Positions 19,762 to 58,080 of a stretch of 64,000 nucleotides of DNA are shown here, piece after piece. Position 1 is the first letter of the stretch, and each line of letters starts with the position of its first letter. Position numbers and translations under genes: made by a program. The notes under the pieces were generated by a model, which was given only the letters and a program-made list of their open reading frames with translations, did not search any database and was not told the origin of the DNA. Where the stretch lies: the NCBI RefSeq assembly GCF_055900595.2, contig NZ_CM148325.1. One strand, written 5' to 3'.

Positions 19762-19883
19762 TGTAGTTTCCCTGTACTGATAGGTGTTGAGTGCCATTGT
19801 AGTGCGATAAGGGTAAGTCATAAACCAGAATTATGTGAAGCTATGCGTTGCTGCCGCTAATCATTAGCGTTATAGTGAATCCG

Positions 19884-22763: not shown

Positions 22764-22878
22764 CGACAACTCCTTATAAATCTTTACCTTCAGGCAGATC
22801 GTCAAAATAACTGATGATCATCATCATTGTTATCCGGGTTCTTACTCCGCCGAACAAGCGTATTGTGAGGATATCAAA

Positions 22879-33099: not shown

Positions 33100-33432
33100 A
33101 TGTTAAAGCATAAAATTCAAACAATATTTGAAGCTCTGTTATATATAATGCTTACTTATTGGTTAATAGATGCTTTTTTTGCATTCAATAAGTATGACTG
33201 GATGCTTGAGTCGGGAGACAATATTTGCAGTATACCTTCCGTTTCAGGCGAAGATCGTATATTGCAAACAATGATTGCAGCATTTTTTCTTCTGACGCCA
33301 CTTATTATTATTATCTTAAGAAAACTCTTTGTGCGAGAAATGTTTGAGTTTTGGTTATATGTAATCTCGCTCGTTATTTGTTTGGTTTGTGGTTGGTGGC
33401 TTTTTTGGGGACGGTTTATATTTTGCTATTAA
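33100..33432 (+). CDS. ygiZ: inner membrane protein YgiZ
   Basis: 110-aa hydrophobic ORF in AT-rich context adjacent to qseC. Confidence 0.7.
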   Translation: MLKHKIQTIFEALLYIMLTYWLIDAFFAFNKYDWMLESGDNICSIPSVSGEDRILQTMIAAFFLLTPLIIIILRKLFVREMFEFWLYVISLVICLVCGWWLFWGRFIFCY

Positions 33433-33477: not shown

Positions 33478-34827
33478 TTACCAGCTTACTTTCGCCTCAA
33501 ATCCACCTTGTTCCGCATTCCCAAACTCAACATTCATGCCATGCAGCTTGGCGATTCGCTGGACAATTGAAAGCCCAAGTCCACTGCCGGTAGCGGTTTG
33601 TCCGGGTGGGCGATAGAAGCGTTCGCCAATTCTCGCCAGTGCCTCTGGTGTCACACCGGGGCCGTTATCCCTCACGATGAAATTATCGGCATTCAGCGTG
33701 ACGTCCACCACGCTACCTTGTGGACTGTAGCGCACGGCGTTATCCAGCAAATTTCGCACCAACAAACTTAGCAATAGCGGTTGTCCGGTGCGTTTGATGC
33801 CGTGGGCATTGAGTGTCAGTCGCACGTCAATTTTCGCCTGCTGCGCCGTGTGGTAAATATCCATCACCGACGATTGCAGGAGATCTTCAAGCGGGATCTC
33901 CGCGACGTCCTGAAGGTTATCCAGTGAGTCCAGCCGCGATAGCGTGAGCAGTTGATCAACCAGACGAGTAGCACGATCGATTCCGGAATGTAATTGAAGC
34001 AGCGCTTTTTTCCGCGCCTGCGGATCATCGTCAGAGAGCTGCGCAACTTCGGTTTGCACTTTCAGCGCCGTTAACGGGCTACGAAGTTCGTGAGCTGCGT
34101 CGGAGGTAAAGCGTCGTTCACGAACCATCATCGCATGTGTGCGGGCGAACAGTTGATTCAACGACTCAACCAGTGGACGCACTTCGCTGGGTACGCCCGT
34201 CGCGTTTAGTGGTTTTTCCGAGTCAGGGTCACGCATACGTAGTGCCAGCGCCAGTTTGTTCAGCGGCGCGAGTTCACGACCCAGTAGTACCATCATGATG
34301 ATTAACATAATCGGCAGTGCGACAAGCCACGGGATCAATTGCCCGGCAACAATTGCCAGCGCCATGTCTTCGCGGTATTCCCATTCCTGACCAACAACGA
34401 TGCGATATTTGCCATCAGGTGAGGTCATCCAGACAAAACGCCAGGGATCGTCTTCACCGACCAGTTGCCCGTCAGCAAAACCTTCCCGTTGATAGCTATA
34501 GGGAATATCTTCTCCGTTATCGCCATCGTTAAGGACCATTCTGCCGTCGTGGGTAAAGATGGCAAAGGTCAGCGCATCGTCATCAACATGACCGTGTTTT
34601 AATTTATTTGGCGTCTGTGCCATGCGATCCGCCGCGTTGATTTCGTTGAGATCGAGCGTACTTAACCGTTTGGCAAACAGCATCAGTTGGGTGTCGAACA
34701 ACTCATCGACGTTATCCGTTGTTTGTTTCCAGGCGACAAAGCTGGAAAGCAGCCAGGTCACCGAGGCCAGAATTAAAAAGATTAGCGTCAGCCTGACTCG
34801 CAGACTAAGACGTTGGGTAAATTTCAT
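33478..34827 (-). CDS. qseC: two-component sensor histidine kinase QseC
   Basis: 449-aa ORF with two TM segments, HAMP and H-box (AAHELRSPL) and HATPase domain; 4-bp overlap with qseB. Confidence 0.9.
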
Positions 34828-49690: not shown

Positions 49691-50878
49691 TTACACAATT
49701 CGCGCAAAACCGGCGTCCAGATCGGCAATCAAATCGTCGACATCTTCCAGACCAATATGCAGGCGAATCAAGGTCCCGCTAAAATCGATCTCGCCTTGTG
49801 GACGAATGGCGGCGATATGTTCTGGTTGATTTGCCAGGATCAACGATTCATAACCGCCCCACGAGTAGGCCATGCTGAATAAACTGAAGTTATCCAGATA
49901 GTTCGCCAGCTCTTCATCATTGAGTTTTTTCTTAAGCACAAAGGAAAATAGCCCGCTGCTACCTGTAAAGTCTCGTTGCCAGAATTCGTGACCTTTACTG
50001 CCAGGCAGAGCAGGGTGGTTAACTCGTGCTACTTGCGGATGTTCCGCCAGCCATTTAGCTACTTTCAGGCTACTTTCGTGATGTTGACGCAGGCGAACAC
50101 CCAAAGTGCGCAGGCCACGGCTGGTTATATAGGCGGTATCGGCATCGACCATCTGCCCCATCAGATAGGCATTCTCCCGTAGCTGCTCCCAGCAACGGGC
50201 ATTGCATACGGCAGTACCAATCATCGCATCTGAATGCCCAACCAGATATTTGGTAGCGGCCTGAATGGAAACATCAATGCCAAAATCCAGCGCCTTAAAC
50301 AGCACGCCGGCCGCCCAGGTGTTATCGATCATAATGATGGCATCTGGCACTACACTGCGCACGGCGGCAACAATCGCCGGAACGTCGTGGACTTCCATGG
50401 TGATGGAGCCCGGCGATTCCAGAAATACAATTTTAGTGTTTGGCTGCACATGTTTAACAATATTCGCGCCAATCAGCGGATCAAACCACGATGTCGTTAC
50501 GCCCAGTTTGCTGAGGATTTTGCTACAGAAATCCTGACTCGGTTCATAGGCGGTGTTGGTCATCAACACATGATCGCCCTGTTCGACAAAAGCAAGAATG
50601 GAATTAGCAACCGCTGCTGCTCCGCAGGGGAACAGCACGCAGCCTGCGCCACCTTCCAGTTCGCACATCGCTTCTTGTAAGGAGAAATGGGTTAACGTTC
50701 CACGCCGTCCATAAAACAACTCGCCATTGGCGCGATTGCGTGTCGCGTGTTTTTTGGCTTCCACACTGTCAAAGACCAGCGAAGAAGCGCGCTGAATCAC
50801 GCTATTTACCGCGCCGAGAGTGTATTTTTTGCTGCGTCCTGCGTTGACCAGTTGAGTATCAAGCTTGTTTTCCGCCAT
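49691..50878 (-). CDS. metC: cystathionine beta-lyase (PLP-dependent)
   Basis: 395-aa product from [27 protein letters not shown]...; track ORF has a 45-codon extension. Confidence 0.9.
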
Positions 50879-50896
50879 GTCCGGATTCCTGTTTTT

Positions 50897-50912
50897 ATAC
50901 GTCTGGATGTCT
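50897..50912. promoter_or_regulatory. putative MetJ operator (tandem met-box-like 8-mers) upstream of metC
   Basis: atacgtct ggatgtct resemble the AGACGTCT met-box consensus (7/8 and 6/8), 19-34 bp upstream of the metC start. Confidence 0.4.
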
Positions 50913-51129
50913 AAACTAGCATGAATATTCGCGGGCGCATCCTGAAGAATTGGCATAAAGCAGAAAATTTTTGCAAATGGCGTGCTGGTGACTTTTTTAC
51001 TGCGTAAACGCAAGGAAAAGAAAGCAAAGGTACGGCAGTATGCAAATAGTAATGAGAACGACTATCAATTCGACGCCGTTTTGATATTATTATGCGCAGA
51101 TTTTGTGACTTGCGTCCTGGAGATACACA

Positions 51130-51864
51130 GTGGGTAATAATTTAATGCAGACGGACCTTTCCGTCTGGGGTATGTATCAGCACGCCGATATTGTCGTTAA
51201 GTGCGTGATGATTGGGCTTATTTTGGCCTCCGTAGTCACTTGGGCAATCTTCTTCAGTAAGAGCGTTGAGTTCTTCAATCAGAAGCGTCGCCTGAAACGC
51301 GAACAGCAACTGCTGGCCCAAGCGCGTTCCTTGAACCAGGCCAACGATATCGCCGCTGATTTTGGTAGCAAAAGCTTAAGCCTGCATTTGCTCAATGAAG
51401 CGCAGGATGAGCTGGAACTGTCAGAAGGCAGCGACGATAACGAAGGTATTAAAGAACGTACCAGCTTCCGTCTGGAGCGTCGGGTCGCCGCCGTGGGGCG
51501 TCAAATGGGCCGCGGTAACGGCTACCTTGCAACCATCGGCGCGATTTCGCCGTTTGTGGGCCTCTTTGGTACGGTCTGGGGCATCATGAACAGCTTTATC
51601 GGTATTGCGCAAACGCAGACCACTAATCTGGCTGTCGTTGCGCCGGGTATCGCAGAAGCTCTGTTAGCAACGGCAATCGGCCTCGTGGCAGCGATTCCAG
51701 CGGTCGTTATCTATAACGTATTTGCACGTCAGATTGGCGGCTTTAAAGCGATGCTGGGTGATGTCGCAGCGCAGGTATTATTGCTGCAAAGTCGTGACCT
51801 GGATCTGGAAGCCAGCGCCGCTGCGCATCCGGTTCGTGTCGCCCAAAAATTACGCGCAGGATAA
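51130..51864 (+). CDS. exbB: TonB-system energizer ExbB
   Basis: 244-aa ORF, GTG start, MGNNLMQTDLSVWGMYQHADIVVK... Confidence 0.9.
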   Translation: MGNNLMQTDLSVWGMYQHADIVVKCVMIGLILASVVTWAIFFSKSVEFFNQKRRLKREQQLLAQARSLNQANDIAADFGSKSLSLHLLNEAQDELELSEGSDDNEGIKERTSFRLERRVAAVGRQMGRGNGYLATIGAISPFVGLFGTVWGIMNSFIGIAQTQTTNLAVVAPGIAEALLATAIGLVAAIPAVVIYNVFARQIGGFKAMLGDVAAQVLLLQSRDLDLEASAAAHPVRVAQKLRAG

Positions 51865-57892: not shown

Positions 57893-58080
57893 TCAAACAT
57901 ACGTATTATCTTGCTTTAATTAATTACACTAATGCTTATTCCCTTCGTTTTAGTGCCCCGCCGCAGTATCATGATATCGATAACCATAATAAATGTGTGG
58001 TAAATGGCGCATCGATCGCATTATTGATTTTGCGATTGAGGCAAAATATATGCCAGGTCTTCGCAACGGAATAACTATAA

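Follow-up and report, generated by a model that had tools for sequence, protein, structure and literature searches.

The DNA immediately upstream of metC in this stretch is almost certainly the canonical two-box MetJ operator of E. coli metC, unchanged from that of K-12. Two 8-mers, ATACGTCT and GGATGTCT on the plus strand, adjoin in register at positions 50897 to 50912 of the window (the whole stretch of DNA analyzed, 64,000 bases). Because metC is encoded on the minus strand, upstream lies toward higher plus-strand coordinates; read in the direction of the gene, the operator is AGACATCC-AGACGTAT, separated from the metC ATG by a gap of 18 nt. The plus strand around the operator reads ...tgtttttATACGTCTGGATGTCTaaactagcatg..., and positions 50890 to 50925 read tgtttttATACGTCTGGATGTCTaaactagcatgaat. 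An earlier note on this DNA had pointed to tandem 8-mers resembling MetJ boxes within 50880 to 50930, just upstream of the metC start, and both parts of that description hold. The gene and the boxes are as follows:

49691..50878, minus strand: metC coding sequence, cystathionine beta-lyase, 395 aa (from the open reading frame, the RefSeq annotation of matching E. coli DNA, and orthologues)
50897..50904, minus strand: met box 2 (ATG-proximal), AGACGTAT in the metC direction, ATACGTCT on the plus strand
50905..50912, minus strand: met box 1 (promoter-proximal), AGACATCC in the metC direction, GGATGTCT on the plus strand

The list of open reading frames gives a longer frame of 440 aa with a TTG start (49691 to 51013), to which the metC ATG is internal (50878 to 50876; MAENKLDTQ...). 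Of 5,426 complete E. coli genomes, 5,422 carry matching DNA annotated as "metC: cystathionine beta-lyase" beside a divergent exbB, and the gene order in K-12 MG1655 is the same (yghA-exbD-exbB / metC-yghB-yqhC). The metC-exbB intergenic region is 251 bp long. A search of the 64-kb window for metJ found no copy; metJ was found in all 122 nonsymbiotic Enterobacteriales genomes surveyed previously (PMC3228920 Table 2). Positions 50700 to 51200 were 100% identical to E. coli Z0117EC0005 (dog) and approximately 97 to 98% identical to most complete E. coli genomes, and the N terminus of MetC (codons 3 to 5) reads MAENK here and MADKK in K-12. This identity pattern, taken with the MetC N terminus, suggests a somewhat divergent E. 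coli lineage.

Score and background of the met boxes

We scored the boxes with the published MetJ matrix of Augustus and Spicer 2011 and applied the site criteria given there (PMC3228920, Table 3 and Methods), under which the met-box consensus, AGACGTCT, is worth 12.58 bits per box, each box must reach at least one-quarter of the consensus score, and the whole site must reach at least the consensus score, 12.58 bits. Box 1 scored 8.96 bits (agreement with the consensus at 6 of 8 positions) and box 2 scored 9.96 bits (7 of 8). The two-box site thus totals 18.92 bits and passes the thresholds; since the K-12 metC met boxes belonged to the initial training set of the matrix, this score and the known site are not entirely independent. 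The same Methods place operators typically within approximately 75 bp of the start codon of a methionine gene, and the site here falls well inside that distance of the metC ATG. A third met box was ruled out, given that the flanking 8-mers scored −9.4 (GCTAGTTT) and −8.7 (AAAAACAG); the 8-mer upstream of the box pair is a −10-like element.

Across the 64-kb window, 609 single 8-mers exceeded the per-box threshold, and one site, the metC operator, passed the published criteria. In 500 dinucleotide-preserving shuffles, threshold-passing sites arose at 0.57 per window, and any site of at least 18.92 bits appeared in 0.8% of shuffles (approximately 1.25 × 10−7 per position). The earlier note had named a poor matrix score relative to background as the outcome that would speak against its proposal; the scan instead returned the best tandem match in the window, of a strength rarely reached in shuffled sequence. 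The shuffle test and the 80-species footprint described below are free of the circularity introduced by matrix training.

Conservation across Enterobacteriaceae

A protein-guided scan, with one genome per species, yielded 80 Enterobacteriaceae metC loci whose MetC orthologues are 85 to 97% identical in protein sequence, from genera including Escherichia, Citrobacter, Salmonella, Klebsiella, Raoultella, Kosakonia, Enterobacter, Leclercia, and Kluyvera. A passing two-box site was found directly upstream of metC in all 80 loci (14.4 to 20.3 bits), and the loci, which total 285,530 bases, contained no further passing site. The distance from site to ATG was 16 to 22 nt in the 78 loci with a full-length protein match, and the gap was 18 or 19 nt in 68 of the 80; the two gap outliers are loci whose protein match begins at residue 4 or 7. 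One odd 16-mer, ACATGTCCGACAAGCC, proved to be an artifact: the tblastn match began at residue 7, placing the operator beyond the 60-nt search zone, and a normal site is present at that locus.

Across the 80 species, box 1 takes the form (A/G)GAC(A/G)TCC, and box 2 is near-invariant, with the variants AGACGGAT, AGATGGAT, and AGACGGTT. The recurrent box substitutions (A1G, G5A, C12T, T14G, and A3C; artifact locus set aside) are mild under the matrix, each at −1.4 to −3.1 bits compared with an average of −3.9 bits for the 48 single changes that are possible, and a change at position 15 is neutral or favorable. Among 5,422 complete E. coli genomes, 5,102 match the 42-nt core at 50884 to 50925 with 100% identity.

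The metC operators of Salmonella, Citrobacter, Klebsiella, Enterobacter, Kosakonia, and others likewise consist of two boxes at the same place relative to the ATG, abutting TGnTAGTYT. They differ from the present one at one to three positions, as in Salmonella (AGACATCCAGACGGTT, 16.6 bits) and Klebsiella (AGACGTCCAGACGTAT, 20.3 bits). Published entries for Salmonella (agacatccagacggtt) and Enterobacter sp. 638 (ggacgtccagacggat) both have a gap of 18 (PMC3228920 Table S1). The metC genes of Yersinia, Vibrio, and Pasteurellales are described as lacking metboxes (PMC3228920), and Yersinia pestis metC carries no metbox mark in Table S1 of that study. One of the 80 loci, CACSKA010000008.1, is labeled "Chryseobacterium sp. 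18061"; it carries an Enterobacteriaceae-type metC (85% identical) with a standard MetJ operator and is probably from a contaminated or mislabeled assembly.

Promoter geometry and the rest of the intergenic region

Alignment of the metC upstream regions revealed a conserved block of the form TC(A/G)TG-n-TAGT(T/C)T | (A/G)GAC(A/G)TCC | AGACGTAT | AAAA-ACAGG (78 distinct upstream sequences), in which the boxes are flanked by candidate signals for transcription and translation:

50913..50921, minus strand: putative extended −10, TGCTAGTTT, abutting box 1, from the phylogenetic footprint (TG at 50921-50920, variable n at 50919, TAGTTT at 50918-50913)
50904..50908, minus strand: predicted metC transcription start zone, approximately 7 nt after the conserved −10 hexamer, inside the boxes
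50887..50896, minus strand: A-rich stretch and Shine-Dalgarno-like AAAAACAGGA (AGGA at 50890-50887, 8 nt before the ATG)

The TG and TAGT(T/C)T elements are near-invariant, and the column between them carries zero information, all four bases occurring there (78 to 79 sequences). Given this information-free position between near-invariant TG and TAGTTT, we infer that TGCTAGTTT is the extended −10 of metC (TGnTAnnnT) and that it would act independently of a −35 element. On the K-12 chromosome (NC_000913.3), with the metC ATG at 3,152,236, the predicted start zone would fall at approximately 3,152,206 to 3,152,210. In the same 78 to 79 sequences, the −35 region is not conserved and the spacer to the ATG varies. 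A scan of 50800 to 51200 with strict sigma-70 and terminator consensus patterns returned no match, and the promoter assignment therefore draws on the footprint. The AAAA-ACAGG element at the other end of the block is near-invariant in the 78 sequences. No Rfam RNA family matched at E ≤ 1 within 50600 to 51300, and a riboswitch or leader RNA was rejected on that result.

In the mechanism that we propose, two ribbon-helix-helix MetJ dimers would bind the boxes cooperatively once the corepressor S-adenosylmethionine (SAM) is bound. Structural work by Somers and Phillips in 1992 is reported to show that each MetJ dimer reads a single box through a beta-ribbon inserted in the major groove, that neighboring dimers touch, and that SAM increases affinity. 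The boxes (50912 to 50897 in the direction of transcription) lie directly downstream of the putative −10 and would span approximately −6 to +10 of the predicted start, and the MetJ tetramer would sit where RNA polymerase has to open and enter the DNA. When methionine and SAM are plentiful, the initiation region would be occluded and metC repressed. Occlusion as the mode of repression follows from this −6 to +10 geometry and is as provisional as the start position, which was placed from the conserved −10. The fixed position of the operator against TGnTAGTTT in the 80-species footprint would then give repression a straightforward geometric basis.

Midway along, at approximately 50958 to 51016, the metC-exbB intergenic region contains a second near-invariant block, which reads TTCCTTGCGTTTACGCAGTAAAAAAG and AAAATTTTCTGC in the metC direction (79 sequences); a near-palindrome, TGCGTAAACGCA, is found within it at 51001 to 51012. 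This block might serve either promoter, as a binding site for a regulator or as an UP-like element. We regard as unlikely the combined reading, in which metC would be transcribed from a −35-independent extended −10 with its start inside the boxes and the second block would be an undescribed input to metC and/or exbBD.

The exbBD operon is under iron/Fur control. A search for the Fur consensus allowing up to 3 mismatches gave no match, and the best intergenic match, AGTAATGAGAACGACTATC at 51048 to 51066, agrees at only 13 of 19 positions. This match lies in a near-invariant exbB-proximal block and fits the iron/Fur control of exbBD, and TATTAT hexamers at 51085 to 51093 adjoin it. Fur matches of at least 13/19 occur 24 times in the window, so that the match to AGTAATGAGAACGACTATC alone is weak. 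Other matches to the Fur consensus, at 14 to 15 of 19 positions, were observed at 34294-34312, 22813-22834, 19856-19874, 33297-33315, and 57973-57991.

MetJ binding, alternative readings, and comparison with K-12

The literature describes the metC operator as the shortest natural MetJ operator, and it has been used as the "F-metC" substrate in MetJ binding assays (PMC2650099). Two MetJ dimers bound an 18-bp metC duplex, with an EC50 of 96 nM in the presence of SAM versus 2900 nM in its absence, a SAM effect of roughly 30-fold (PMC2650099). In PMC3228920, where E. coli operators were assayed with lacZ fusions and gel shifts, the metC upstream region was shifted, and the exceptions to direct repression discussed in the text are exbB and metH, not metC. 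In vivo, loss of metJ derepresses metC enough to alter phenotype, according to the passages of PMC12188003 and PMC4803232 that cite Kang et al. 2011. MetJ-SAM binding and in vivo repression, published for the identical K-12 sequence, would carry over to this strain by analogy. The earlier note had called the boxes consistent with MetJ repression, a suggestion that gains support from the published binding and derepression of the identical K-12 sequence and from the conservation of the site in 80 of 80 loci. MetJ control of metC also explains known phenotypes, such as the D-alanine independence of alr dadX mutants lacking metJ.

Met-box-like 8-mers are common enough that a functionless, chance likeness to the consensus deserves consideration: the window holds 609 of them above the per-box threshold, and approximately 0.57 passing tandem sites are expected per 64 kb. 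However, a score of 18.92 bits was reached in only 0.8% of shuffles, a methionine gene begins 18 nt from the site, its sequence is that of an experimentally bound K-12 operator, and it is kept at the same position in 80 of 80 species. Conservation and identity to a validated operator refute the chance explanation, to which we give practically no credence. Another proposal is that the operator chiefly controls the divergent exbBD operon and not metC. The 251-bp intergenic region is common to exbB and metC, and a fragment cloned as the exbB upstream region was also bound by MetJ in gel shift assays (PMC3228920), but the boxes are approximately 218 bp from the exbB start codon versus 18 bp from the metC ATG, and exbB was not MetJ regulated in published in vivo data (PMC3228920). 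Regulation of exbB through the metC boxes was rejected on those in vivo data, and control chiefly of exbBD appears remote in the extreme.

The block might also be conserved only for metC expression, as core promoter, initial transcribed region, and ribosome-binding region, and not for MetJ binding. Because the boxes are embedded between the conserved −10-like element and the A-rich/Shine-Dalgarno stretch, some of the conservation could serve initiation or translation, and the promoter or translation and MetJ roles of the block are not mutually exclusive. As a complete account, however, conservation for expression alone is very improbable: the 16 bp give an in-register fit to the MetJ matrix, the substitutions that recur are ones tolerated by MetJ, SAM-dependent MetJ binding to the 16-mer has been published (PMC2650099), and metC is derepressed on metJ loss in the accounts of Kang et al. 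2011 given by PMC12188003 and PMC4803232. The canonical MetJ operator of metC, our preferred reading, is already known, and there is nothing new in the boxes themselves. The canonical methionine/SAM feedback on cystathionine beta-lyase appears to be kept in this E. coli lineage, and little follows from this beyond correct annotation.

Comparison with the K-12 metC operator, which the earlier note had put forward as a check, gave exact agreement. The published entry for b3008 metC reads 18.92, 2 boxes, 9.46, gap 18, and agacatccagacgtat (PMC3228920 Table S1), and the 16-mer, box count, score, and ATG gap found here are all identical to it. The table gives the same 16-mer 52 times, for strains of E. 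coli, Shigella, and E. fergusonii. Relative to MG1655, the operator, the promoter core (−10-like), and the Shine-Dalgarno region are the same base for base, with identity unbroken from 64 nt upstream of the boxes through the Shine-Dalgarno region. The 251-bp intergenic region as a whole contains 3 differences from K-12, 2 of them far upstream of the boxes and 1, the first difference met past the Shine-Dalgarno region, at −4 from the ATG. Scored with the same matrix, the operators of metA, metB/metJ, metF, metE/metR, metN, metK, and mmuP share the tandem 8-bp architecture of the metC site. Those other E. coli MetJ operators contain 3 to 4 boxes and score 15 to 31 bits, whereas metC has only 2 boxes, like ybdH/mtnE.
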